NCBI GenBank assembly: GCA_964479535.1
Contig: CAYZMM010000017.1
Location: forward strand, 15,995 to 79,994
DNA length: 64,000 nt
Direction: 5' to 3'
DNA from: an uncultured Thermodesulfobacteriota bacterium
GTDB taxonomy: Bacteria > Desulfobacterota > DSWW01
A program made the translations under genes and the position numbers. Positions 1 to 39,259 of this stretch are shown here, one piece after another; position 1 is the stretch's first letter, and every line of letters begins with the position of its first letter. The notes beneath the pieces were generated by a model. The model did not search any database. It had not been told where the DNA came from and was given only the letters and a program-made list of their open reading frames with translations.

Positions 1-1227
1 GAGTCGAAGGCCCTCCTCGCCGCTTACGGTATTCCCGTGAATCGGACGGAAATCGCCTCGACCGCTCAGGAGGCGGTGGAAAAGGCAGGGGAACTCGGAT
101 ATCCCGTGGCCATGAAGATTCATTCCAGAGACATTCTGCACAAGACCGACGCGAACGGGGTCCGCCTGAATCTTCGATGCGAACAGGACGTGCGGGAGGC
201 CTTCGACGAAACCCTGGCCGGGGCGCACGCCTTCCAACCGGAGGCCCGTCTGGAAGGCGTGACGATCCAGCCCATGCTCGAACGCCCCGACTTCGAGTTG
301 ATCCTCGGTGCGAAACAGGACCGGGATTTCGGGCCTGTGATCCTCTTCGGCACGGGCGGGATCATGACCGAGGTCCTCAGGGACCAGGCGATCGCCCTCC
401 CTCCGTTGAACCGCCTTCTTGCCAGAAGATTGATGGAAGAGACGAAGATTCACTGCGTCCTCCGTGGCTACCGCAATCGCCCACCCGCCGACATCGATCT
501 CCTCGAGGAAATCCTGATCCGTCTGGCCCGCCTCGTGACCGACTTCTCGGAGATCGACGAACTGGATATCAACCCCTTCCTCCTCGCCGGGAACAGGGCC
601 TGTGCAGTGGATGCAAGAGTCCTGTTGCGCACTCCACGGACCGCGGCGCCGTTCCACCTCGTGATCAGCTCCTATCCGAACCAGCATGAGACCCATACCG
701 TCTCCGAGGGCGGTCTGCCCTGTTTCCTCAGGCCCATCCGACCCGAGGACGCCCCTCTTCTGAAGGAACTCTTCGATTCACTGTCCCCCCAGAGCGTTTA
801 CTTCCGCTTCTTCGCCCCTCTCAAGGCCCTCCCTCACAAGATGCTGGCCCGTTTCACCCAGATCGACTACGACCGGGAGATCGCCCTCATCGCACTCAAG
901 GAAGACGCGACCGAGGAGAAGATGCTCGGCGTTGCACGCGCCATCCGTGTGCCGGGTGAAGACCGGGCCGAAATGAGCGTTGTCGTCGGGGACCCCTGGC
1001 ACGGCAAAGGCATTGGAGCGGTGCTGCTCAGGCACTGTGTCGAGATCGCCGCCGAACAGGGAATCGAGGAGATGTGGGGGATCGTCCTGCCGGAGAACAC
1101 GCGCATGCTCGCCTTGGGACGGAAGCTCGGCTGCGACATCCGTCGAAGCCCCGATTCCCGGGACTATGAATTGCGGATCGATCTTCGGAAGCTGCGGCAA
1201 GACACCGCCCATGCCGTCGGCGCATGA
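1..1227 (+). CDS. ADP-forming acetyl-CoA synthetase-like / C-terminal GNAT protein acetyltransferase (Pat-type), 5' end outside window
   Basis: Frame 1 is open from nt 1 (ESKALLAAYGIPV..., ATP-grasp-like). The C-terminal GNAT region (RPIRPEDAPLLKELF...WHGKGIGAVLL) is homologous to the GNAT end of 16622..18526. Confidence 0.8.
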   Translation, partial: ESKALLAAYGIPVNRTEIASTAQEAVEKAGELGYPVAMKIHSRDILHKTDANGVRLNLRCEQDVREAFDETLAGAHAFQPEARLEGVTIQPMLERPDFELILGAKQDRDFGPVILFGTGGIMTEVLRDQAIALPPLNRLLARRLMEETKIHCVLRGYRNRPPADIDLLEEILIRLARLVTDFSEIDELDINPFLLAGNRACAVDARVLLRTPRTAAPFHLVISSYPNQHETHTVSEGGLPCFLRPIRPEDAPLLKELFDSLSPQSVYFRFFAPLKALPHKMLARFTQIDYDREIALIALKEDATEEKMLGVARAIRVPGEDRAEMSVVVGDPWHGKGIGAVLLRHCVEIAAEQGIEEMWGIVLPENTRMLALGRKLGCDIRRSPDSRDYELRIDLRKLRQDTAHAVGA

Positions 1228-1236
1228 GTCCCTTTT

Positions 1237-1257
1237 CCTTTACAGCCTGTCAAGAGG
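1237..1257. promoter_or_regulatory. Candidate activator-binding palindrome (site A): ccTTTACAgccTGTCAAgagg
   Basis: Core 1239-1253. Centre lies ~115 bp upstream of the GG of the sigma-54 motif at 1360. Same motif at 2392, 5485 and 8569. Confidence 0.5.
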
Positions 1258-1333
1258 TCCGACACGCGAAGGCTCTGCTACCCCATCGAACCGCCTTGCT
1301 CTCCTTCGATTCCCGAGCGTTTTGCAGCCGTGA

Positions 1334-1516
1334 CGGAGGGACCTGCCTTTTTCCGGGAGTGGCACGGGGATTGCGAACAACGAACAGAACGCGATCCTTC
1401 AGCTTCAGGAGGCAAGCTACCACGTGGTCGTACTGGACTTGAAGAAACCCGGCATGGACGACATCACGAAACTCGGGGAAATCGAGAAGCTTGGTCTGTT
1501 CACCGAAACGCTCATA
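1334..1516 (+). pseudogene. Receiver (REC) domain relic with no start codon
   Basis: Frame 2 reads GIANNEQNAILQLQEASYHVVVLDLKKPGMDDITKLGEIEKL, i.e. alpha2-beta3-alpha3 of a receiver with the LDLxxPGMD phospho-acceptor region. A TGA at 1331 precedes it and beta1 is missing. Confidence 0.3.
1360..1375 (+). promoter_or_regulatory. Sigma-54 (-24/-12) promoter TGGCACGGGGATTGCG
   Basis: Exact GG-N10-GC spacing and 15/16 match to TGGCACG-N4-TTGCW. Lies upstream of the small ORF at 1530. Confidence 0.6.
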
Positions 1517-1529
1517 AGGAGGGAAAGAG

Positions 1530-1733
1530 ATGTCCGTCGAAGAGCTTCTGGCGCTGGAAAGATATTCCCGTTTCTACCACTTCCTGTGTGACGAACTGCG
1601 GGCCTGCAGGACGGAAACCGAGAAGAAGACCGTCCTTTCGGTGCTCCTCACGACCCGGATCCAGATCAACCGGCTCCTGGAGCTTCTGACTCCGGCAAAG
1701 GCCGGGGAGCGTCAGGCAGCTTGCGCCGCCTGA
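1530..1733 (+). CDS. Small (67 aa) predicted helical protein, unknown function
   Basis: Strong RBS (AAGGAGGGAAAGAG-ATG) and host-like GC3-rich codons. Sits downstream of the sigma-54 promoter at 1360. Confidence 0.55.
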   Translation: MSVEELLALERYSRFYHFLCDELRACRTETEKKTVLSVLLTTRIQINRLLELLTPAKAGERQAACAA

Positions 1734-1752
1734 CGCTCCTCCGTACCGCGAC

Positions 1753-2217
1753 TCAGGTCTTCCTCGCTTCCACCGGCATGGACGGCTGTCCGGAATTTCG
1801 CCCTCCTGTCTCGGGCCCGCTTCGTTCCTTTGGGTCGAGACGATCGGCGTGGCCCCTTCCCAGGACCCGATACACGGCTTGCCGCAATCCATCGATGTTT
1901 CCCGTCTTCTCCACCAGGTCCGCCGCCGTCCCGACGAGGCTCGAACAGACGCATTCGGCCGAGAAGCTGTAGATGATAAACGGCACATGCGGAACCCGGT
2001 TCGAGAGATGCTCAACCAGTCTCGATTCGTCCAGGCCGGGCAATTCGTCGTCCAGGATCAGAAGGTCCAGACTTTCTTCGAGGCGTATGCTCCGGACGAG
2101 ATCGGAGCCGTTCTCGGCCACGAGCACGTTAAAGCCGTCGGCCACGAACTCACGCCTCAGAAAACGGCGCACACGTGGATTGCGCTCCGCGATCAGAATG
2201 CTGAAACTTTCTTCCAC
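1753..2217 (-). CDS. Single-domain response regulator (REC)
   Basis: ILIAERNP...LLILDDELPGLD receiver motifs. GTG start with a GGGGAG RBS. Confidence 0.85.
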   Translation of the reverse strand: MEESFSILIAERNPRVRRFLRREFVADGFNVLVAENGSDLVRSIRLEESLDLLILDDELPGLDESRLVEHLSNRVPHVPFIIYSFSAECVCSSLVGTAADLVEKTGNIDGLRQAVYRVLGRGHADRLDPKERSGPETGGRNSGQPSMPVEARKT

Positions 2218-2258
2218 GACCGTCTCCCCTTTCCCCGTTCGGAATGGGAAAGAGGAAG

Positions 2259-2274
2259 TGCAACCCCTATGCCA
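2259..2274 (-). promoter_or_regulatory. Sigma-54 promoter TGGCATAGGGGTTGCA (minus strand)
   Basis: Reverse complement of tgcaacccctatgcca. Lies ~42 nt upstream of the GTG of the response regulator. Confidence 0.6.
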
Positions 2275-2391
2275 GTCGCGGCGCTATGACTTCGGGAGGG
2301 GAGGTCGTACGGTGGATTCTGATTCTTCGGAGTATGGAGCTGTGCGGAAGGAACCGCATGGGGAGTGGACGGGTTGGAGCTGTCAACGTTT

Positions 2392-2406
2392 TTTACAGAC
2401 TGTAAA
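2392..2406. promoter_or_regulatory. Candidate activator-binding palindrome (site B): TTTACAgacTGTAAA
   Basis: Perfect 6-3-6 palindrome ~127 bp upstream of the -24 GG of the 2259-2274 promoter. It sits just 3' of the EBP stop codon. Confidence 0.5.
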
Positions 2407-2412
2407 TTCCCG

Positions 2413-3876
2413 CTAGATCTCTTCCTCGCACTGAACCCGGGTCTTCATCTGAATCCGGTATTTCTCGATCTTGGACAGGAGGGTTGGCCGGGACAGGCCG
2501 ATGAGCTTTGCAGCACGGCTTCGATTCCCCTCCGTGATGTTCAGGGTTTCCGTGATCAGGATCCGGGCGAAGTGGTCCATGAGGTCGTCGAAGAGCCGCG
2601 CTTGGCCGGAAGCCGAACGGATCCTCACGCGAACCCATTCCCTTATGGAGTCCTCTACGGTCTGTTCTCCTCCGGCGGGGGCGAGATCGATCCTCTCGCC
2701 GATCACTCGAGAAACCTCGTCCGGCCCGATCGGCACCGCACGGCTGAAAATGAGCGCCTTCTGAAGGCTGTTGGCCAACTCCCGAACGTTGCCCGGCCAG
2801 GCATTCCCCATCAGGGTCGCCCGGGCTTCCCGGGTCAGCCCGGGGTTCTCCATCTCCATGTCCAAGGCGAAACGGGTGAGGAAGTAGTCGGTCAGCAGGG
2901 GGATGTCTTCGGCCCGCTCACGCAGCGGAGGGAGCTTGAGGGTGACCACTTTCAGGCGATAGTACAGATCCTCCCGGAACCTACCCTCCTCGAGCGCTTT
3001 CTCGAGATCGCGGTTGGTGGCGGCGACGATGCGCACGTCCACCGGTATCGGCTCACGGCCCCCGAGGCGTTCGATGCTCTTTTCCTGCAGCAACCGGAGG
3101 ATCTTCGCCTGGATGCTGAAGGGCATGTCGCCGATCTCGTCCAGAAACACGGTTCCGCCATTCGCCTGTTCGATCTTCCCTACACGGCGGTGGGCCGCGC
3201 CGGTGAATGCACCCCTCTCGTAGCCGAAGAGTTCGCTCTCCAGGAGTGTGTCCGGGATGGCCACACAGTTGATGACCAGAAAGGGCTTGTCCGCCCGGAG
3301 GCTGTGATGGTAGATCGCCCTGGCGACCAGTTCCTTTCCCGTACCGGACTCGCCCCGGATCAGTACGGTCGCATCCGTGGGGGCAACCCGTCCGATCGCC
3401 TTGTACACCTCCTGCATCGCCCTGCTTCGACCGATCAGGACCTCGGAAGCCGTCGACTTCGGAGGGGCATCCATCTCTACGGGGGAACGCATCAGTCTCG
3501 CCGCTTCCAGGGTCTGGTTGATCAGGGCGAGCATGTCCGGAATCTCGAAGGGCTTGGTGACATAATCATAGGCCCCGAGCTTGGTCGCCTCGATGGCCGT
3601 ATCCGTGGTCCCGTGGGCGGTCATGATGACGACCGAAAGCTTCGGCTCCAGCTCGTGAATGACCCGAAAGGCCTCCAAACCGTCCATGCCGGGCAGCCGC
3701 ACGTCCATGATGACCAGATCCGGCACCTCCTGCCTGACCCGGTCGATACCCTCCTCGCCGGTGGCGGCCGTCCGAACGGTGTGCCCCTCCTCGCTCAGGA
3801 TCTTCTCGAAGCTCTGTCGCAATTGGGCATCGTCGTCTACGATCAGGATGGTTCCCAACTCTTGTCCTCCCTGCAC
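2413..3876 (-). CDS. Sigma-54-dependent transcriptional activator, NtrC family (REC-AAA+-HTH)
   Basis: ILIVDDD...MDVRLPGMDG receiver, GESGTGKE Walker A, GAFTGA loop, and a C-terminal Fis-type HTH (AAKLIGLSRPTLLSKI). Confidence 0.95.
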   Translation of the reverse strand: MQGGQELGTILIVDDDAQLRQSFEKILSEEGHTVRTAATGEEGIDRVRQEVPDLVIMDVRLPGMDGLEAFRVIHELEPKLSVVIMTAHGTTDTAIEATKLGAYDYVTKPFEIPDMLALINQTLEAARLMRSPVEMDAPPKSTASEVLIGRSRAMQEVYKAIGRVAPTDATVLIRGESGTGKELVARAIYHHSLRADKPFLVINCVAIPDTLLESELFGYERGAFTGAAHRRVGKIEQANGGTVFLDEIGDMPFSIQAKILRLLQEKSIERLGGREPIPVDVRIVAATNRDLEKALEEGRFREDLYYRLKVVTLKLPPLRERAEDIPLLTDYFLTRFALDMEMENPGLTREARATLMGNAWPGNVRELANSLQKALIFSRAVPIGPDEVSRVIGERIDLAPAGGEQTVEDSIREWVRVRIRSASGQARLFDDLMDHFARILITETLNITEGNRSRAAKLIGLSRPTLLSKIEKYRIQMKTRVQCEEEI

Positions 3877-5333
3877 GGCAACGTGATGGAAAAAGTCGTG
3901 CCCTGCCCCTCTTCGGACAAGAGGCTCAGATGGCCGCCATGCTGCTCAACGATCCTCACAGCGATGCTGAGCCCCAGGCCGGTACCTTCCTCTTTCGTAC
4001 TGAAGAACGGCTCCAGTACCTTCTCCTGAAGACCTGCCGGAATCCCGGGTCCGTCGTCCTTGATCCGAACCACCGCCACGGGCCCCAGGGTCGAGCGCAC
4101 ATCCTCTTCTTCTATCGTGATCGTCCCTCCCTCACCCATCGCTTCGCAGGCGTTGATCAGAAGATTCATGAAGACCTCTTTGAGTTGATCCGGGTCTGCA
4201 AGAACCTCCGGAAGAGCCTCCGATCGCTTGCGGTCCACCGTCACTCCGTAGGATTTGAACCGGTGTCGGAGAAGCTGGAGATTCATGTCGATCAAATGCG
4301 ACGTACTGATCCTTTGCATCTTAAGCTTGGAGGGTCGCGCGTACTCCAGGAAGTTTCGAACGATCGTATCGATGTGGCGGGTCTCTTCGGCGATCACTTC
4401 CATGTCCTCTTTCTGATCGGCGGTGACGTCCAGGGACTTCTCGAGGGAAAAAAGCCGCATCTTGATCGAGGTCAATGGATTTCGAATGCTGTGGGCCACC
4501 CCGGACGCCAGCCTGCCCACCATGGCCATCTTCTCCGCCTCGACGAGCCGGGTCCGACTCCGTTCCAATTCCAAATGGGTCTGATCCGCGTCCTTGATCA
4601 GCCCGCGCACCTCTCGGCTCAGCGCCTTTACCTCGTTCGACGAACCGCCCGGTTCCGCGAAACGTTCCGCCTCGTTGAGGAGCCGACGGATCGGGCCGAA
4701 GACTTGCCGGAGCATCATGAAGAGCAGGAGCAGGGTCAGCACAAGGCCCACAAACACCGCAGAGACCGCTATGCCTCGGATTCGGCCTGCCCGCTTCTGG
4801 CTCAAGGCCTGTGTGGTTCGGACCCTCACGAGCTGCCTGGCTTCGTAGGCGTGGCACAAATCCAGAATCTGATCGAAATGCCTGCGTACCTCTTGGTGCA
4901 GGACAATTCCCTCTTCACGTCTTCCGGACTGATAGAATCCGACGACTCGATCTTTCGACTGGACGTACTGTTCGTATTTCGACTCGATCTGCCGAAGGGT
5001 CGTCCTGGCTTCTTCCCCGGTGGCCAGGCTGTCGGCCCTCTTCAAGCTTTCTACAAACGCCTGTCGCTGCTCATCCAGACGTCGAAGCCATTCAGCATCT
5101 CCATCCATGAAGTAGTACGACACAAACCCCTTCTGCCTGATCAAGGCCTCCAACACATCCGAAACCGCGAAGGCACTCGCCATTTCCCTGTCGATCGACT
5201 GATCGAAGAGCGCCTCCATCTGGTAGGTATACCAGCTCATCACGGATCCCCCGGTCACCGTGAGGAGCATGAGAAGGATCAGGATCGCGAAGATGCGGCC
5301 GCGCAGGCCCAGCCACTTCGTCATGGCCGTCAC
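3843..5333 (-). CDS. Membrane sensor histidine kinase (cognate of the NtrC-type regulator)
   Basis: N-terminal TM, second TM and HAMP-like region. H-box VAHSIRNPL and ATPase G-box GTGLGLSI. Overlaps the regulator start by 34 nt. GTG start at 5333; an ATG at 5324 is an alternative. Confidence 0.9.
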   Translation of the reverse strand: MTAMTKWLGLRGRIFAILILLMLLTVTGGSVMSWYTYQMEALFDQSIDREMASAFAVSDVLEALIRQKGFVSYYFMDGDAEWLRRLDEQRQAFVESLKRADSLATGEEARTTLRQIESKYEQYVQSKDRVVGFYQSGRREEGIVLHQEVRRHFDQILDLCHAYEARQLVRVRTTQALSQKRAGRIRGIAVSAVFVGLVLTLLLLFMMLRQVFGPIRRLLNEAERFAEPGGSSNEVKALSREVRGLIKDADQTHLELERSRTRLVEAEKMAMVGRLASGVAHSIRNPLTSIKMRLFSLEKSLDVTADQKEDMEVIAEETRHIDTIVRNFLEYARPSKLKMQRISTSHLIDMNLQLLRHRFKSYGVTVDRKRSEALPEVLADPDQLKEVFMNLLINACEAMGEGGTITIEEEDVRSTLGPVAVVRIKDDGPGIPAGLQEKVLEPFFSTKEEGTGLGLSIAVRIVEQHGGHLSLLSEEGQGTTFSITLPCREDKSWEPS

Positions 5334-5482
5334 CCGTCATAGGTATGTGATCGACCGGAAAACACCCCGTGTCCGACCGACGGGGCATCGACCGGCTCTG
5401 CCGGCATCATAGTAAAGGGCCGAAACACAGTCAAAGGGTTCCAGGGCTCCAGGCTTGCTTCCCACACGAGGGAGCCTCGCGG

Positions 5483-5503
5483 CCTTTACATCCTGTAAAA
5501 GGG
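5483..5503. promoter_or_regulatory. Candidate activator-binding palindrome (site C): ccTTTACAtccTGTAAAaggg
   Basis: Core 5485-5499, ~115 bp upstream of the -24 GG at 5606. Confidence 0.5.
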
Positions 5504-5604
5504 CCTGACATCTTCCCCCGACTCCAACACGTGGCCTCCCGCTGCCCACGCCCCCGGGACCTCGTTTTCTTTCTATCTTTCAAGATTCATGCCCGGTTTC
5601 TCTG

Positions 5605-5620
5605 TGGCACACCGGTTGCA
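5605..5620 (+). promoter_or_regulatory. Sigma-54 promoter TGGCACACCGGTTGCA
   Basis: 16/16 match to TGGCAC-N5-TTGCA, 52 nt upstream of the ATG at 5672. Confidence 0.65.
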
Positions 5621-5671
5621 GTTCTGCCCGCCAGATCCCTGAGGTCCTTTCCGATAGGAAGGAGGGTAGCC

Positions 5672-6937
5672 ATGGAAGTCCCTGAACCGTACCTTTCCGT
5701 TTCCTATGACCGGTCCCGGATTCAAGCGAGAAATCAAACGATCTCCATCCTCCTGGACATCAGCAATTTCCTCACCTCTTCCCTCCATCTCCGGCACATC
5801 CTGGAGGGGTCCCTGGAGAGGGTCCTTGAACACTTCGGGTTGGATGCGGGAAGGGTCTATCTGATGGACGAAGACGGCGATCACCTGAAGCTCGCGGCTC
5901 ACAAGGGGATCGAGCCCGAGGGGCTGGAGGTGGTAAGACTCGACGAAGGGTTTTCGGGCAAGGCCGCCAGAACACGTTCCTTTCTCGCAGGCAGAGTGCG
6001 CGACCTGGAAGACCGGTCCCGCGTTCGACTTCTCCTCGGTAAAGGCTACGAGACGATCGTCTGCGTGCCTCTCGTCGCCCTCGACGAGGTGGCGGGGGTC
6101 ATGAACCTGGCCACCGCGAGGCTCATCGAACTCGACCAGAGCAAAACCGATCTTCTGATGATCGTGGGCAATCAGATCGCCACGGCGGTCAGAAACGCTC
6201 AGCTTTACGAGGACAACCAGAAGAGGATCGACGAACTGAACGAAAAGAAGGAAACGATCAAGTTCTTCGCCTATTCCGCATCTCACGATCTGAAATGTCC
6301 GGCCGTGGGTCTCCACGGCCTTGCGGAGTTGCTCCACAGGAAATACGCCCAAGGCCTCGATGCGAAGGGAAAGGAACTCTGCTCCCAGATTCTGAAGACA
6401 TCCGGCCACATTGTGCTGCTCACCGACAAGATCAACGCCTATGTGGCTGCCAAAGAGACGCCTCCGAGAATGGAACGCGTGCGTGTAAACGAAATCATCG
6501 AGACGGTCCGGAGTGAATTCCTTCAGGTTCTCGAGGCCCGGGGCATCGAGTGGGTCGAACCTTCGGAAGAGATCGAGATCCTCACCGACCGGTTGGCGAT
6601 GGTGCGGTTCTTCCAGAACTGCGTGGACAACGCCCTCAAGTACGGCGGTGCAGGGTTGACCCGGATTCGATTCGGCTACGACCAGGATCGGGAGTCCCAC
6701 GTCTTTTCCGTAGAGGATGACGGCGTCGGCATCAACCAGGAGGACGCAGCGGGTCTCTTTCAGCTCTTTCGCCGGCACGAGACATCGAACGGAACCGAAG
6801 GGAGCGGTCTCGGCCTGGCCATCGTCAAAGAGCTGGCCGAGAGGCAAGGGGGCAAGGCGTGGGTGCAAACGAAGGAGGGGCATGGCGCCTCCTTCTTCCT
6901 GTCCATCCCGAAGTGTCCGAGGGAGAGGAGATCATGA
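5672..6937 (+). CDS. GAF domain sensor histidine kinase
   Basis: Start chosen at MEVPEPY with RBS GGAAGGAGGG. The first 101 codons of the tracked ORF look non-coding and contain the promoter. H-box SASHDLKCP and G-box GSGLGLAIV. Confidence 0.9.
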   Translation: MEVPEPYLSVSYDRSRIQARNQTISILLDISNFLTSSLHLRHILEGSLERVLEHFGLDAGRVYLMDEDGDHLKLAAHKGIEPEGLEVVRLDEGFSGKAARTRSFLAGRVRDLEDRSRVRLLLGKGYETIVCVPLVALDEVAGVMNLATARLIELDQSKTDLLMIVGNQIATAVRNAQLYEDNQKRIDELNEKKETIKFFAYSASHDLKCPAVGLHGLAELLHRKYAQGLDAKGKELCSQILKTSGHIVLLTDKINAYVAAKETPPRMERVRVNEIIETVRSEFLQVLEARGIEWVEPSEEIEILTDRLAMVRFFQNCVDNALKYGGAGLTRIRFGYDQDRESHVFSVEDDGVGINQEDAAGLFQLFRRHETSNGTEGSGLGLAIVKELAERQGGKAWVQTKEGHGASFFLSIPKCPRERRS

Positions 6938-7076
6938 AAGCCTTCGAAAGAATCCTGTTCCCCACGGCAGAAAGGGAATCGACCGGGTCCTGTTCGGAAG
7001 CGTGGCCGCTTACGTGGTGAAGATGTCGCCCGTACCGGTCATGACGGTGAACCCATACAGAGTCGACGGGAAATAG
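6934..7076 (+). pseudogene. Universal stress protein remnant (internal out-of-frame deletion)
   Basis: The ATG overlaps the kinase stop (ATGA). The N-terminus MKAFERILFP matches MPAFKKILFP of the intact USP at 18600. In another frame, HGRKGIDRVLFGSVAAYVVKMSPVPVMTVNPYR matches that USP's C-terminus. The middle ~115 codons are missing. Confidence 0.6.
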
Positions 7077-7121
7077 ATGGAAGCTCGAAACGGCAGACCC
7101 TTCCAACCTCAGTGGGTAGAC

Positions 7122-7601
7122 ATGAACACAGAGCAGGTAGTTTCCGTTCTTCGGAAATGCGAAATCTTCAGCGGACTCTCAGAGAAGGAACTGCGGTCGA
7201 TCGCTTCACTGGCGAAGATCGAGAAATTCAACGCCGGCGAGGTCATCTACACGCAGGGAAGCATCGGACGGAAGCTCTATGTTCTCGCCCAGGGACAGGT
7301 CGTCCTGGAGAGAACGATGAGCCTGGGAGGGAAACGCCAGGCGACGCTTCCCGTGTTCGTCCAGAGAGAGAATCCCTCCAGGCGGCTCATGGGCGGCTGG
7401 TCTTCCCTTGTGGGTCAGGACCACGTGCAGATGTGCACCGCAACGTGCCGCAAACCGACGACGGTCGTCACCCTTTCGGCTGCAGAATTGAACGCGTGTA
7501 TTTCAAGAGACCCAATGACTCGAGCAACGGTCCTGGAGAGACTCGTTCTTCTGCTTAGGGATCGGATCGCCAGCAGCTACCAGGAAATGGAAGCCCTGTA
7601 G
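7122..7601 (+). CDS. Cyclic-nucleotide-binding domain protein
   Basis: LRKCEIFSGLSEKELRSIASLAKIEKFNAGEVIYTQGSIGRKLYVLAQGQVVL is a cNMP-binding beta-barrel signature. The ORF opens at 7077; the ATG at 7122 is preferred. Confidence 0.8.
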   Translation: MNTEQVVSVLRKCEIFSGLSEKELRSIASLAKIEKFNAGEVIYTQGSIGRKLYVLAQGQVVLERTMSLGGKRQATLPVFVQRENPSRRLMGGWSSLVGQDHVQMCTATCRKPTTVVTLSAAELNACISRDPMTRATVLERLVLLLRDRIASSYQEMEAL

Positions 7602-7607
7602 CGGGCT

Positions 7608-8375
7608 TCAGACAGCTTTCTTTGCGGAGGGCTCGACCAGCCCTTTCGCCTCCATGGCCCCGGCCACGAGATCCACGATGAGATCCATCGAAAGGGTCCC
7701 CTGGTTGAGCACCATGTCGTACAGCTCCGGGTTCTCGATGTCCTCGTTGAAGTACTTTCTGAAAAAGGCTTCCCGCTCCGCATCGTAGAGGCGGATTCTT
7801 CGGATCGCTTCTTCCTGCGAAAGCTGGTGGAAGGAAGCCACTTGGTCGGCCCGCCACGACAGGGGAGCCACGATACGGATATGGAAGCCTGTCGCCAGGT
7901 CCCGGCTGATCTTGCAGGCGCCCCGACCCACGACCACCGCGTGGCCCTTCTCGCAGATGCTCCGGATCACCCGAACCATCCGCTGGAAGACCTCGTCCTC
8001 CACCGGCCATTTCTGGAGAAGCGTGTCCATGTACCTGGCGATCTTCGTCCTGGCCCCGCTCGTGAGCAGATCGGCCAGGCGCTTGTTCATCTTCATGTCG
8101 GTAGCGATGCGGCTCACGATCTCCTTGTCGTAGAGCGTCCACTTGGTATCGGACCGCTCCCACTGATTCAAATGCTCGGAAAAACGGAGCCCCGTTTCCA
8201 GGGCCATGCACCCGTATTGGCGGCTGATCGTCAGGAAGGGTTTCCCCGCCCCTCTCTTCTGCCGCTTCTCCTTCTCCCACTGGGCCACCATGGCCCCGAT
8301 GTACTGGTCCTTCTCCTTTTCCGTGTAGAGTCGGAAGACCCCGAATCCCAGGGGGCTCTTCTTTCGAATGGCCAT
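7608..8375 (-). CDS. Cytidylate kinase-like family protein
   Basis: FLTISRQYGCMALE...VVVGRGA...HIRIVAP pattern typical of this family. Strong RBS AGGAGGAGGG. Confidence 0.75.
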   Translation of the reverse strand: MAIRKKSPLGFGVFRLYTEKEKDQYIGAMVAQWEKEKRQKRGAGKPFLTISRQYGCMALETGLRFSEHLNQWERSDTKWTLYDKEIVSRIATDMKMNKRLADLLTSGARTKIARYMDTLLQKWPVEDEVFQRMVRVIRSICEKGHAVVVGRGACKISRDLATGFHIRIVAPLSWRADQVASFHQLSQEEAIRRIRLYDAEREAFFRKYFNEDIENPELYDMVLNQGTLSMDLIVDLVAGAMEAKGLVEPSAKKAV

Positions 8376-8445
8376 CTCTTCCCTCCTCCTGAAGACCGCG
8401 ATGTTTCGAAAACCGCTCCTTCCCCATACCCTTCCGTCTCATGAC

Positions 8446-8461
8446 AGCAACTACCGTGCCA
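8446..8461 (-). promoter_or_regulatory. Sigma-54 promoter TGGCACGGTAGTTGCT (minus strand)
   Basis: Reverse complement of agcaactaccgtgcca, ~70 nt upstream of the ATG at 8375. Confidence 0.6.
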
Positions 8462-8566
8462 ACGAACGAGCCCGGCGCGAAGGGGGGAAAGGGGCGAGGA
8501 GGGCCTGAGAATCCGGAAAACGAAGCAGGCCGTCGACCCGAACGATCCGGTCATCCCTGTCGTGAT

Positions 8567-8586
8567 CCTTTACACTCTGGCAAAGG
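8567..8586. promoter_or_regulatory. Candidate activator-binding site D: ccTTTACActcTGGCAAagg
   Basis: Left half is perfect; right half matches 4/6. Centre lies ~117 bp upstream of the -24 GG of the 8446-8461 promoter. Confidence 0.4.
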
Positions 8587-8694
8587 AAACAAGGCCGCCT
8601 CGAGGAGAGAGTTTGCCACGCCCTGTCCCTTCATGGCATAACCTTCTGATTCGTGTCTCATGGCCTTTCGTACCGGCTTTTCACGGGAGTGGAG

Positions 8695-9759
8695 ATGGAG
8701 GCTTCGTTCTTACACTGGATCTTGGACGAGCATGCCCTGGCCGAGCTGGTGGCAGGGGTGCCGACCCTGGGGCTGGTCCTGCTGATCGTCGTATCCATTC
8801 TGGTTCTGTCCAGGGGCGCGGACTGGATGATCGAGGGCGCCGTGCACCTCGCCCGCCGGACCGGGCTTCCGAAGATCGTGATCGGCGCCACGATCATCTC
8901 CCTGGGGACGACCACGCCGGAGGCCTTCGTTTCGGTCATGGCCGCCTGGATGGGCAACCCCGGCCTTGCCCTCGGCAACGGTGTGGGGTCCATCATCTGC
9001 GACACGGGCCTGATCTTCGGTCTGACCTGCCTCCTGGCAACGGTCCCGGTGAACCGTTACATCCTGAACCGCACCGGATGGGTCCAGGTAGGATCCGCCA
9101 CACTTCTGGTGGCCGTCTCCCTGGTCGCACTCGCCATGGCACCGGATCGGCCAACGCTCCAACGATGGGTCGGGTTCTTCTTCCTCTTCCTTCTGTGCGT
9201 CTACATGTACATCACCTACTCGTGGGCGCGAAGCGGGGCAGAGGCGGCTTCCGGAGCGGAAATCGCCGAGGAGGAGGGAATCGCCCCCATGTGGAAAGCC
9301 CTGACCCAGGTCCTGGGGGGACTCCTCCTGGTCGTGGCGGCTGCACGGGTCCTGATACCGAGTGCGGCCGAGCTGGCGGGCCGAATGGGCGTGCCGGAAG
9401 ACGTCATCGCGGCCACCATGGTCGCCTTCGGCACCTCCCTGCCCGAGCTGATGACCGCCGTCACCGCGGTCCGGAAGGGGCATCCGGAAATCACGGTGGG
9501 CAACATCGTGGGGGCGGACGTCCTGAACTGCCTCTTCGTCATCGGCGCTTCCGCCGCCGCACGGCCGCTGGAAATCCCGGCCAACTTCTTCCTCTTCCAT
9601 TTCCCGGCCATGCTGATCATTCTCTACTCGTTCCGGGCCTTCATCACCATGAACCGGGACGGCCTCTTCAAGCGCTGGCAGGGCGCCTGGCTCCTCGGCA
9701 TCTACCTGGTCTATCTGGCACTGCAGTACGGGTTCAACATCGGAAGGGAACCTGGATAA
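8695..9759 (+). CDS. Sodium/calcium antiporter (CaCA / YrbG family)
   Basis: Two alpha-repeats (GATIISLGTTTPE and ATMVAFGTSLPE) in a polytopic membrane protein. Confidence 0.9.
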   Translation: MEASFLHWILDEHALAELVAGVPTLGLVLLIVVSILVLSRGADWMIEGAVHLARRTGLPKIVIGATIISLGTTTPEAFVSVMAAWMGNPGLALGNGVGSIICDTGLIFGLTCLLATVPVNRYILNRTGWVQVGSATLLVAVSLVALAMAPDRPTLQRWVGFFFLFLLCVYMYITYSWARSGAEAASGAEIAEEEGIAPMWKALTQVLGGLLLVVAAARVLIPSAAELAGRMGVPEDVIAATMVAFGTSLPELMTAVTAVRKGHPEITVGNIVGADVLNCLFVIGASAAARPLEIPANFFLFHFPAMLIILYSFRAFITMNRDGLFKRWQGAWLLGIYLVYLALQYGFNIGREPG

Positions 9760-10732: not shown

Positions 10733-10748
10733 TGCCAGATCCATGCCA
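10733..10748 (-). promoter_or_regulatory. Sigma-54-like promoter TGGCATGGATCTGGCA (minus strand)
   Basis: GG-N10-GC spacing is kept. The -12 element is TGGCA rather than TTGCA. Lies ~40 nt upstream of the cytochrome ATG. Confidence 0.4.
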
Positions 10749-12331: not shown

Positions 12332-12753
12332 CCCTCACACCTTTCTCTTCCGCCGCCGCCACGTTCCGTTACCTCCACCCTGCCGTTGTCGGCATCCACC
12401 AGGAGTTCCACACCCTCCGGGATCCGATCGATGTCGATCCGGTCGATGCACGGGATCTCCGCGATGATCGCACCGACGGCAACGATCGTCTCACACTCCC
12501 GGTTCAGAATCGCCACGGGCGCGGTGCCGGTCTTCTTCATCCTGTAAAGAGTGTAACTGCCGACGGTCGAGCCCTTTCCCCGAGGGAAGACCAGGACCGC
12601 TCCGCTCACGCTTCTGCCCTGCAGCGGGTGGCCCTCCTCCTCGACGATGCCCGTGTCCGGATCGACGCCCCCGAAAAAGGAGATGCCCTCGCCGGACACG
12701 AGGGCCCTGCCCCTCGCCCTGCCTCCGAAGATCTTCCTTCCCTGCAGATTCAT
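12316..12753 (-). CDS. Aconitase X swivel-domain subunit (DUF126, AcnX small subunit)
   Basis: GRALVSGEGISFFGGVDPDTG...LVFPRGKGSTVGSYTLY is the DUF126 signature. Starts 1 nt after the large-subunit stop. Confidence 0.85.
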   Translation of the reverse strand: MNLQGRKIFGGRARGRALVSGEGISFFGGVDPDTGIVEEEGHPLQGRSVSGAVLVFPRGKGSTVGSYTLYRMKKTGTAPVAILNRECETIVAVGAIIAEIPCIDRIDIDRIPEGVELLVDADNGRVEVTERGGGGRERCEGQEGG

Positions 12754-18599: not shown

Positions 18600-19076
18600 A
18601 TGCCCGCATTCAAGAAGATCCTGTTTCCGGTGGATCTGTCCGAGGTTTCTTCAGCGATCATCCCTTTCGTGACCACCATGGCCGAAACCTTCCGGGCGGA
18701 ATTGCACGTTCTCTTCGTGGCGCGCATCTTCAAGTACTACGACACCATCTATGTACCGCCCATGTCCATCCTGGAATTCGAGGAGAAGATTCTCGCCGGC
18801 GGCAAACAGCGCCTGGATGAATTCGTCGAGGAGCACCTGAAGGAGTGTGATGTCGCTGTCGCAAGAGTCACGGCCGGGGACCCGGCCGAGGAGATCATCG
18901 GATACATCGAGTCGGAAGGGATCGATCTGGTAGTCATGGGCACCCACGGCCGCAAAGGGCTGGACCGGGTCCTCTTCGGCAGCGTGGCCAATCACGTGGT
19001 CACCACCTCCCCCGTCCCGGTCATGACCGTGAACCCCTATAGACAGAAGAAGCAAAATACCTTTACGGAAGTTTAA
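18600..19076 (+). CDS. Universal stress protein
   Basis: FKKILFPVDLSE...VMGTHGRKGLDRVLFGSVANHVV. RBS AAAGGGAGGGAG. Confidence 0.9.
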   Translation: MPAFKKILFPVDLSEVSSAIIPFVTTMAETFRAELHVLFVARIFKYYDTIYVPPMSILEFEEKILAGGKQRLDEFVEEHLKECDVAVARVTAGDPAEEIIGYIESEGIDLVVMGTHGRKGLDRVLFGSVANHVVTTSPVPVMTVNPYRQKKQNTFTEV

Positions 19077-37318: not shown

Positions 37319-39259
37319 ATGGGCAAGAAGAATCCGGCTTCAGTGGTCTTCTGGGCGTTGGTGCTCGTTTTTACCCTTTCGGCGGTCCATGCGGATGCCG
37401 GGAACCACCCCGGCTACACCAGCTACCCGAGCTACGAATGTGCTGGCGAGAAGATGGACGCCGCCGCGGACCGCTGTGACAAAGTCCTGAAGGCCTGGAG
37501 CATCTGGGCCCTTACCCAGTACTACCCGGAGTGGCTGGTCGACCGAGCCGATCGGTCCTTCGATGCGAGGTGGGCCGACGCCGAGTACGAGGCGGGTATG
37601 CAGGGCGTCGACTGCGCCGAAATGACGCTCTCCGCAGAGGAGATGAGGGCGCTGATGGATGGGGCCACCGACGAGATCGTCTCCCAGGTGACGGACGGCC
37701 TCGACCTGGGTTTCACCTGGGACGGTATTTGCGGCATGCGGGTTCTCAATTCCGCCGCAACCCTGTGCCGCAAGCTGCTTCGTGCGGAGAGCAAGTATAT
37801 CGAGGATCTCGCCAGGGATCCGGAGGGCGAGAAACTCGACCGGGAACAGGAAAGGGCCGGCAGGATCTTCGACCGTCAATGGGACCAGGCGACGCGAAGG
37901 CACTGCTCGATCCCGGCGACCCGGGAGGAAATCGAAGGAAAGCTCAATGCGCTGAACGACGACGTGGTGACCAACATCATTGTCTCCCCCCATGTTCCCG
38001 ACGACGCTTTCATGGCGATCACCCACCCGGCCGGCGGCGAGCTCGGCAATGAGGTCGTCTACGAAGGCAACACGCTGGTCCCGCAATGCCAGGACGGCTC
38101 GTCCTTCACCTTCTTCGCGAAGCGGGGCACCGTGAACAAGCTGCTGATGTACTACTACGGAGGGGGCGCGTGCTGGGACACTGCAACCTGCGTGTATGAG
38201 ACCTGCACCCAGACCGCGAACCCGACCCCGCCCGGCCTTGGCGGAAGCGGGTTCGGAGATCTTACCGACCCGGACAACCCGTTCAAAGACTGGCACGTTG
38301 TCCGCGTTCCGTACTGCAGCTGCGATATACACTTGGGGGACAACGCGGTCGACTACCCCGCGATTCCGGGGCTACTCCCGGGCAAGCATGTGCAGCATCG
38401 CGGCCACGACAACTCCAAGCTGGCGGAGAAATGGGCACGGGAGCACTTCCTGAACCCCACCGACATGTTCGTCACCGGTTCCAGCGCGGGATCTTACGGT
38501 GCGATGGTAAACGGACTGCACCTGAGCGAGGTCTTTGTGGCCACGAGCGTCAACGTGATGGGCGACGGGGGGAACGGCGTGGTCACCCAGGAATTCATGG
38601 ACAACAGTTTCACGAACTGGGGCGCATTGGTGAACCTGCCGCAGATACCCGGGCTCATCGGCGTGCCCGCATCGGAGATGTCGATCCCGCTCATTCTGAA
38701 ATCCGCAGCCAGCTACTATCCCGGCACAAACTGGTCCAACTACACCACCGCCTTTGACGGCGGGGGGGGAGGCCAGACCGGCTTCTTCAACGTGATGCTC
38801 AATCCTCTGGATCCGATCGGTGCCCGGGCGACCTGGTGGGAAGCCTCCTGCCTCTGGAACGAGATCATGCGCGAACAGGCCTATGACACCGCCGACACAA
38901 CGGCAATGGAGAACGACAACTACTGCTACTACATTTCCAGCGGCTCCAGGCACACAGGTTTCGGCACCCCCCGCGTCTACTACGACACCACGGGAGATGT
39001 GCCGACCCTGGTCGACTGGGCGAACTGGATGATCGATGACGACCCGAGATGGACCAACGTCGAGGCCGACCCGTTCAACGTTCTCTTCCCGGGTGAGTGC
39101 AGTTCGGACAGCTCCAATCCGGGCGAGACGTGCAATGTGAATGCCGATTGCCCGGGCGGTTCCTGCCTGGGCGACGATGTGAAGCCGGACCCCCTCCAGG
39201 ATCCCTTCGAAATGGTCGGATCCGGGCCGGACGCCCAAGTGGTGGTGAATTGCCCTTAA
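37319..39259 (+). CDS. Secreted pectin-acetylesterase/Notum-family (PAE-like) hydrolase with unknown N-terminal domain
   Basis: Signal peptide ending VHA-DA. LLMYYYGGGACWDTATC and the nucleophile motif VTGSSAGSYGA. Cys-rich C-terminal tail. Confidence 0.75.
   Translation: MGKKNPASVVFWALVLVFTLSAVHADAGNHPGYTSYPSYECAGEKMDAAADRCDKVLKAWSIWALTQYYPEWLVDRADRSFDARWADAEYEAGMQGVDCAEMTLSAEEMRALMDGATDEIVSQVTDGLDLGFTWDGICGMRVLNSAATLCRKLLRAESKYIEDLARDPEGEKLDREQERAGRIFDRQWDQATRRHCSIPATREEIEGKLNALNDDVVTNIIVSPHVPDDAFMAITHPAGGELGNEVVYEGNTLVPQCQDGSSFTFFAKRGTVNKLLMYYYGGGACWDTATCVYETCTQTANPTPPGLGGSGFGDLTDPDNPFKDWHVVRVPYCSCDIHLGDNAVDYPAIPGLLPGKHVQHRGHDNSKLAEKWAREHFLNPTDMFVTGSSAGSYGAMVNGLHLSEVFVATSVNVMGDGGNGVVTQEFMDNSFTNWGALVNLPQIPGLIGVPASEMSIPLILKSAASYYPGTNWSNYTTAFDGGGGGQTGFFNVMLNPLDPIGARATWWEASCLWNEIMREQAYDTADTTAMENDNYCYYISSGSRHTGFGTPRVYYDTTGDVPTLVDWANWMIDDDPRWTNVEADPFNVLFPGECSSDSSNPGETCNVNADCPGGSCLGDDVKPDPLQDPFEMVGSGPDAQVVVNCP

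Follow-up and report, generated by a model that had tools for sequence, protein, structure and literature searches.

What does a palindrome that recurs four times upstream of sigma-54 promoters do, and which regulator reads it? The question is raised by a 64-kb stretch of DNA from an uncultured Thermodesulfobacteriota bacterium (assembly GCA_964479535.1, contig CAYZMM010000017.1; "the window" below means this whole stretch), in which four -24/-12 promoters, each preceded by a copy of TTTACA-N3-TGTAAA, lie around a gene pair encoding a sensor histidine kinase and a sigma-54 enhancer-binding response regulator. An initial sequence-only reading had proposed that the palindrome is the upstream activating sequence (UAS) of this activator. 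Judged from the sequence, a local sigma-54 regulon run by this one two-component system, with a shared UAS and four promoters, is highly probable. The assignment of the palindrome as the UAS of the activator at 2413..3876 is well supported by its conservation beside orthologous activators, by negative-control loci, by a shared recognition helix and by the published DNA binding of an ortholog. The sites and promoters are listed here, with bit scores from a 28-bp weight matrix built from the sites of other genomes only, the window sites having been left out.

1238..1265, + strand: UAS1, cTTTACAgccTGTCAAgaggtccGACAc (23.7 bits; half-site A at 1239-1244, half-site B at 1248-1253, half-site C (GACA) at 1261-1264)
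2380..2407, - strand: UAS2, aTTTACAgtcTGTAAAaaacgttGACAg (36.6 bits, the best score in the window; starts 5 nt past the activator stop codon)
5484..5511, + strand: UAS3, cTTTACAtccTGTAAAagggcctGACAt (29.4 bits)
8557..8584, - strand: UAS4, tTTGCCAgagTGTAAAggatcacGACAg (22.3 bits; half-site A degenerate)
1360-1375, + strand: sigma-54 promoter P1, TGGCACGGGGATTGCG (GG-N10-GC intact; one mismatch to TGGCAY-N5-TTGCW, outside GG/GC)
2259-2274, - strand: sigma-54 promoter P2, TGGCATAGGGGTTGCA (exact consensus match)
5605-5620, + strand: sigma-54 promoter P3, TGGCACACCGGTTGCA (exact consensus match)
8446-8461, - strand: sigma-54 promoter P4, TGGCACGGTAGTTGCT (exact consensus match)

The motif scan places the palindromes at 1239-1253, 2392-2406, 5485-5499 and 8569-8583, and together with a reading of the region finds the four -24/-12 sites with their GG-N10-GC spacing, in both cases exactly where the sequence-only reading had put them. 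At up to two mismatches, TTTACA-N3-TGTAAA has 5 matches in 64 kb, compared with 0.13 +/- 0.34 in shuffles, while TGGCAY-N5-TTGCW at up to one mismatch has 7, compared with 2.12 +/- 1.26 in dinucleotide-preserving shuffles (n=100, none of which gave 7); the four promoters paired with palindromes comprise all three exact sigma-54 matches together with the best of those with one mismatch. The matrix scan gives the next-best other position in the 64 kb only 5.6 bits, upholding the earlier statement that the window holds no other such site; the top score over 40 shuffles was 12.1, and the reverse-strand readings of two window sites gave 12.9 and 12.4 bits, the opposite orientation never exceeding 12.9. 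The window sites and promoters are thus real and non-random, far beyond chance. A fifth palindrome-like match at 12534 (2 mismatches, 4.6-4.8 bits, no promoter) was rejected, and further sigma-54-like strings at 10733 (-), 10894 (+, without GC) and 39131 (-) were set aside, having no UAS. Two of these, 10733-10748 (-) and 39131-39146 (-), have one mismatch with GG/GC intact, and may be promoters of another activator or chance matches.

Counted from the palindrome centre to the first G of the GG, the spacing is 115 bp for UAS1, 126 bp for UAS2, 114 bp for UAS3 and 116 bp for UAS4, that of UAS2 being one helical turn longer than the other three. The values first given were 115, 127, 115 and 117 bp, of which the first agrees and the others become 126, 114 and 116 under the convention used here. 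All four promoters are intergenic and oriented towards genes, with start codons 42-155 nt downstream (approximately 40-155 nt by the earlier estimate): P1 is followed by a 155-nt leader and an open reading frame (ORF) at 1530-1733 (+), P2 by a GTG start at 2217 after 42 nt, with a GGGGAG ribosome-binding site, P3 by an ATG at 5672 after 52 nt, and P4 by an ATG at 8375 after 71 nt.

The regulatory genes in the middle of the locus are as follows.

2413..3876, - strand: sigma-54 enhancer-binding response regulator, 487 aa (Pfam architecture REC-AAA+-HTH_8)
3843..5333, - strand: cognate sensor histidine kinase, 496 aa (Pfam HisKA, HATPase_c; 34-nt overlap with the activator gene)
5406..5434, - strand: sigma-70-like promoter TTGACT-17-TATGAT (10/12 consensus positions; ~70 nt upstream of the kinase start, before UAS3)

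The activator consists of a receiver domain (Response_reg, E = 1e-32), in which DD 14-15 and D57 align with CheY D12, D13 and D57 and D57 is the predicted phospho-acceptor, an AAA+ domain (Sigma54_activat, E = 1e-73) with GAFTGA at residue 222, and a C-terminal Fis-type helix-turn-helix (HTH_8, E = 1e-8, residues 438-473). It is the sole enhancer-binding protein in the window by tblastn, and tblastn, Pfam and the sequence agree with its earlier description as the only such protein, with a GAFTGA loop and its kinase, in the middle of the locus. Its scores lie below the NCBIfam equivalog cut-offs for NtrC (TIGR01818, 496 vs 558.6) and AtoC (450 vs 714), and none of the activator, the kinase and the receiver-like and cytidylate-kinase-like proteins described below reaches any NCBIfam equivalog cut-off. 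The kinase has, by hydropathy, two transmembrane segments around a ~150-aa periplasmic domain, which resembles a four-helix bundle. A sigma-70 promoter probably serves the kinase-activator operon; the plausibly placed candidate at 5406..5434 is not statistically distinguishable from chance, one such match being expected by chance in the region.

The assignment of the palindrome to this activator was examined by the conservation check that the sequence-only reading had proposed, and site, promoter and spacing are kept beside orthologous activators in ~50 genomes. The kinase-activator pair was found in ~50 Desulfobacterota genomes. The window activator is 60-79% identical to orthologs in 43 genomes, among them Syntrophobacterales, Desulfobacterales, Desulfomonile and Solidesulfovibrio, and the next proteins in that search are at most 45% identical; a clear gap thus separates identities inside the ortholog group (at least 60%) from those outside it (at most 48%, with a second search included). 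With few exceptions, the kinase gene (~40-57% identity) lies directly upstream of the activator gene in these loci. Over 510 kb, the 43 ortholog loci contain 19 exact and 18 one-mismatch copies of the palindrome, compared with 0 exact and 1 one-mismatch copy in 37 loci with ~40%-identical activators (486 kb). Likewise, the matrix scan finds 62 sites in the ortholog loci (0.56 Mb), 43 of them with a promoter, and 5 sites in the control loci (1.34 Mb), one of them with a loose promoter-like match (2 mismatches). Most ortholog sites lie just past the activator stop codon, as does the window palindrome at 2392-2406, and are followed by a consensus -24/-12 promoter. The recognition helix region, GGNRSxAAxLLGLSRPTLxxKIxKY, is kept throughout the ortholog group, including S. 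magneticus, and differs in non-orthologs. The spacing is 113-116 bp in 24 of 43 modules of the relatives, with smaller groups at 104-108 and 127-129 bp and the rest scattered, the main groups being consistent with one-helical-turn increments. In the spacers of the orthologous modules, the stretch 30-60 bp upstream of the GG is A+T-rich, and IHF-like sites occur in 16 of 41 of them (4.2 +/- 1.9 in shuffles).

The same comparison redefines the site. In an alignment of 30 modules from outside the window, with the promoter placed to the right, the consensus is tTTTACA-nnc-TGTAAA-AAAw-nyy-GACA, which spans 27 bp and reaches 11 bp past the palindrome towards the promoter. The 15-bp palindrome first described as the site is indeed present, but the actual site is polar, longer by these 11 bp and made of three half-sites. 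The added features stand at positions that were not used for selection: the T before the palindrome is conserved, positions 16-18 form an A-tract (A in 21-29 of the 30 sites) followed by A or T at position 19, and the G, A, C and A of positions 23-26 are kept in 24, 27, 29 and 27 of the 30 sites. GACA stands at exactly positions 23-26 in each of the four window sites, whose spacers are G+C-rich and not A-tracts. The three half-sites are of the TGTMAA type, A (TTTACA) and C (yTGACA) being direct repeats ~20 bp apart with B (TGTAAA) inverted between them; they form two overlapping dyads, A-B of 15 bp and B-C of 17 bp, whose centres lie one helical turn apart. Polarity was counted over 47 strong sites (at least 25 bits), comprising 43 from the ortholog loci plus UAS1-4 of the window. 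Of these, 2 have promoters on both sides and 6 have none; among the other 39, GACA lies on the promoter side in 35, all four window sites among them, and on the far side in 4. In the four reversed modules, found in loci L251, L254 and L259, a distance of 101-106 bp from the A-B centre corresponds to 111-116 bp from the B-C centre.

The promoter-proximal 17 bp of the composite site (TGTAAA-N7-GACA, positions 10-26) match a published motif, TGTAAAAAAAGCTGACA, which supplementary file 4 of Kazakov et al. 2015 (PMC4641369) gives as the site of the DVU0110 regulog, with members in D. vulgaris, D. piger and D. magneticus. DVU0110 shifts the DVU0132 upstream region by electrophoretic mobility shift assay, and the same region is its top peak by DAP-chip (DNA affinity purification on chip; Rajeev et al. 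2011, PMC3333781); the regulog members include DMR_16180 of Solidesulfovibrio magneticus and DESPIG_02519 of D. piger (PMC3333781, PMC4641369). Beyond these two papers, the literature searched contained no mention of DVU0110 or its targets. The connection to the window runs through an S. magneticus locus (L245), retrieved by an exact 17-mer scan of reference genomes, in which the 17-mer has TTGACAgcc before it and TGGCACGGCGCTTGCC after it, and lies just downstream of a kinase-activator pair and exactly 528 nt before a TSUP permease ORF, as published for DMR_16160. Because the 17-mer is at the exact published -528 position, the activator of this locus is taken to be DMR_16180; the window activator is 63% identical to it over 485 aa. 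TGTMAA-N7-GACA is kept in register at every window site, the four having 2, 4, 6 and 6 mismatches to the 17-mer, mainly in the spacer, and UAS1 has C at position 4 of TGTAAA, like the published DMR_16200 site. A genome scan with the Solidesulfovibrio activator as query returned distant relatives only and was uninformative for D. vulgaris.

The window system is most probably a member of this DVU0110-type regulon family, and is not a new kind of system but one that was partly characterised before. The earlier impression that the regulon looks uncharacterised does not wholly hold, the overlapping 17-bp motif having been published for the DVU0110/DMR_16180 group in 2015. Shared with the DVU0110 regulon are the gene order, with the kinase gene immediately before that of a REC-AAA+-HTH activator, and the sites upstream of sigma-54 promoters; the Solidesulfovibrio module drives a receiver-like gene and a TSUP permease, and a receiver-like gene is also a window target. 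By contrast, the published motif is without the distal TTTACA, a half-site that is degenerate in D. piger, whereas TTTACA is near-invariant in the palindrome-selected sites from Syntrophobacterales- and Desulfobacterales-type genomes; and the window is without a local TSUP target, having GAF kinase, cyclic nucleotide monophosphate (cNMP)-binding and cytidylate-kinase-like proteins instead. Exact copies of TGTAAAAAAAGCTGACA also occur in more than 100 genomes (L161-L280), many of them Gammaproteobacteria (Colwellia, Halioglobus, Paraglaciecola, Methylomonas); the gammaproteobacterial copies lack both the TTTACA half-site and any sigma-54 promoter within 160 nt, and may be sites of a PEP-CTERM-type regulator or unrelated.

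Among other known systems, the most familiar parallel is NtrC (GlnG) at glnAp2, where a phosphorylated REC-AAA+-Fis-HTH activator binds dyads ~100-140 bp upstream of the -24/-12 promoter and acts by looping. The activator layout is the same, and the window dyad TGT-N11-ACA spans 17 bp like the textbook NtrC site TGCACC-N5-GGTGCA, but the window has one composite element of three half-sites in place of two separate dimer sites, another recognition sequence, no nitrogen-metabolism genes at the locus, and an activator below the TIGR01818 cut-off. In D. vulgaris, the sites of DVU3334 (the Kdp regulator, GTTACATTTTGTAAC) and DVU3305 (GTTGCGATATGCAAC) have the same 6-N3-6 inverted-repeat layout as TTTACA-N3-TGTAAA, and the DVU3305 regulon also includes genes for a universal stress protein (Usp) and a TSUP transporter. 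Both differ in the outer bases, the absence of a third half-site and the ortholog group of the activator, as judged from their descriptions, and DVU3305 has GAFSGA. Two Acinetobacter loci with 41%-identical activators (L053:582-596 and L063:594-608) carry GTTACAyTTTGTAAT, which resembles the DVU3334 site GTTACATTTTGTAAC.

Other explanations of the shared element can be set against these data. The one that survives best, though improbable, is that the enhancers are real but that a paralogous activator elsewhere in the genome is their main or an additional user. It could be a PrsR/DVUA0057-like PEP-CTERM regulator with the same core recognition, and the local activator would then supply just one of several inputs. 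For D. vulgaris, Kazakov et al. (PMC4641369) predict one motif common to DVU0110 and the plasmid-borne DVUA0057, with indistinguishable sites, and both proteins bind upstream of DVU0132; the window activator, at 440 bits to the PEP-CTERM regulator model, is a fairly close relative of such proteins, and the view is limited to 64 kb of the genome. On the other hand, 440 bits lies under the 502.6-bit cut-off of that model, the window kinase is not PrsK-like (85 bits vs a 300-bit cut-off), tblastn finds no second activator in the window, and the site is linked to the kinase-activator pair across ~50 genomes, starting within a few hundred bases of the activator stop codon. Very unlikely is the second alternative, in which a factor unrelated to sigma-54, e.g. 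a repressor, uses the palindrome as its operator and the association with the promoters is only indirect. Dimer operators commonly take the 6-N3-6 form and the locus encodes a cNMP-binding protein, but that protein has no DNA-binding domain by Pfam, the fixed distance of ~115 bp to -24/-12 promoters with helical-repeat steps is what enhancers typically show, unlike operators, and the element co-varies with one activator ortholog group, a protein of which binds such DNA in vitro. A functionless chance co-occurrence of sigma-54-like and palindrome-like strings, favoured only by the general frequency of short motifs, is refuted by the shuffle controls, the cross-genome conservation and the negative-control loci, and its likelihood is negligible.

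Several points nevertheless weigh against a single local regulon read by this activator. In this organism the case is built from sequence, and the probable orthology to DVU0110 depends on two things, the link through S. magneticus and the assignment that Kazakov et al. made. Since the DVU0110 and DVUA0057 motifs are inseparable, a second activator outside the window could also use the sites. UAS1 and UAS4 fit the published 17-mer poorly in the spacer, and the distal half-site of UAS4 is degenerate. No IHF-like site (up to 2 mismatches to WATCAANNNNTTR) was found in the window spacers at 1266-1359, 2275-2379, 5512-5604 and 8462-8556, and these G+C-rich spacers also lack the A+T-rich zone of the relatives. 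Finally, the P1 unit is without a credible gene.

The units behind the four promoters, as annotated with Pfam, are given here.

1376..1733, + strand: P1 transcript region: an orphan 67-aa ORF (1530-1733) behind a 155-nt leader that carries a weak receiver-domain remnant (...HVVVLDLKKPGMDD...)
1753..2217, - strand: single-domain receiver-like protein, 154 aa (Response_reg, E = 1e-10), P2 target
5672..7601, + strand: P3 operon, with a GAF histidine kinase (5672-6937), a Usp remnant (6934-7076) and a cNMP-binding protein (7077-7601)
7608..8375, - strand: Cytidylate_kin2-family protein, 255 aa (PF13189, E = 1e-30), P4 target

Pfam confirms the response regulator, GAF kinase, decayed Usp, cNMP-binding and cytidylate-kinase-like annotations of the sequence-only reading, but its remaining target, a 67-aa helical protein behind P1, is in doubt. 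This ORF had no homolog but itself in 5.8 billion protein clusters and is hence a doubtful gene; it has no Pfam or NCBIfam match, and an exact-match look-up found it on one 3.8-kb metagenome contig (SRR7048227), which added no context. Translation of the P1 leader gives a weak receiver-domain fragment (HVVVLDLKKPGMDDITKLGEIEKL; alignment E = 4e-4 in a 500-nt database). An Rfam scan of 1-9000 at E <= 0.1 gave no match, lending no support to the idea that P1 drives a known small RNA, and a terminator scan found none convincing for the P1 transcript. The P1 unit looks decayed, though UAS1 and its promoter are intact. Upstream of P1 and beside UAS1, positions 37-1227 are the 3' part of the gene for a 926-aa Pat-like protein (CoA-ligase/ATP-grasp and GNAT; see also L281:310-3090), with 59-61% identical relatives at L008:12708-13862 and L048:11712-12866; because these relatives lie within a few kb of the activator gene, the neighbourhood is syntenic.

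The receiver-like protein is the most conserved target of the family, as the first genes after UAS and promoter in orthologous modules indicate.

Divergent single-domain receiver-like protein: 16 modules
Universal stress protein: 9 modules
CBS-pair protein: 4 modules
TauE/TSUP permease: 2 modules
DASS/CitMHS transporter: 2 modules

Members of the receiver-like family (e.g. L001:8659-9060) keep the equivalents of CheY D57 and K109, while the D13 position is replaced by Arg, Lys or Ser in the motif IA[DE]RN; in the window protein it is Arg (IAERN). CheY with D13K or D13R is active although unphosphorylated. If this behaviour applies by analogy, the receiver-like protein may be a pseudo-receiver, and not a phosphate sink; with the acidic residue of CheY D13 absent, it may be a phosphorylation-independent partner or a feedback element.

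Common operons in the relatives are Usp-CBS, CBS-Usp-cytidylate-kinase-like and receiver-like-TSUP, and a TSUP gene is present in L001, L002, L009, L018, L032, L233, L245 and L261. The claim that the outputs are nearly all signalling proteins describes this locus, and not its relatives, which drive Usp, CBS and TSUP/DASS genes. The window has kept the receiver-like gene, the cytidylate-kinase-like gene and the Usp remnant and has added the GAF kinase and the cNMP-binding protein, and none of its four local promoters is followed by a TauE/TSUP gene (Pfam, 64-kb window). By its sequence the Usp remnant is an internal deletion, with ~10 N-terminal codons (MKAFERILFP) joined out of frame to ~37 C-terminal codons (HGRKGIDRVLFGSVAAYVVKMSPVPVMTV...); an intact Usp paralog at 18600-19031 has no UAS. 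The cytidylate-kinase-like protein falls below the NCBIfam (d)CMP kinase cut-off; in L006, a regulated CBS-Usp operon has a 26%-identical relative as its third gene.

Taken together, these features suggest how the locus may work. The membrane kinase (3843-5333) would use its periplasmic helical domain to sense a signal from outside the cytoplasm and, we infer, phosphorylate Asp57 of the activator (2413-3876). The activated protein would then assemble on the 27-bp composite site, presumably through all three half-sites, of which the outer two have the same orientation and lie two helical turns apart, with the middle one inverted. As the site is ~115 (or 126) bp upstream of each -24/-12 promoter, corresponding to ~11 or 12 helical turns, the activator would be on the same DNA face at every promoter, and DNA looping would bring its GAFTGA loops to the closed complex of the sigma-54 holoenzyme, ATP hydrolysis opening the promoter. 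Four units would respond: the receiver-like gene, the GAF-kinase/Usp-remnant/cNMP operon, the cytidylate-kinase-like gene and the decayed orphan-ORF unit. A bolder and quite tentative extension is that the system is a self-contained signalling cassette, spread through Desulfobacterota with cargo swapped between lineages. It would combine an enhancer that is not free in position and orientation, but rigid, polar and ~11 helical turns from its promoter, with a conserved first product, a D13-substituted (Arg/Lys) pseudo-receiver that feeds back unphosphorylated on the kinase-activator pair.

The new elements are the extended, polar three-half-site model with its fixed phasing, the wide distribution among Desulfobacterota, the target set that the relatives share, and the finding that the window locus is partly eroded and rewired; no new mechanism is revealed. 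The analysis extends a poorly understood sigma-54 regulon from two Desulfovibrio studies to ~50 Desulfobacterota genomes, and the 27-bp polar, fixed-phase site model is usable for annotating such regulons. More speculatively, targets of the TSUP/DASS, Usp and CBS kinds hint that sulfate reducers and syntrophs use the regulon in a response to stress or in anion transport (PMC5840216).

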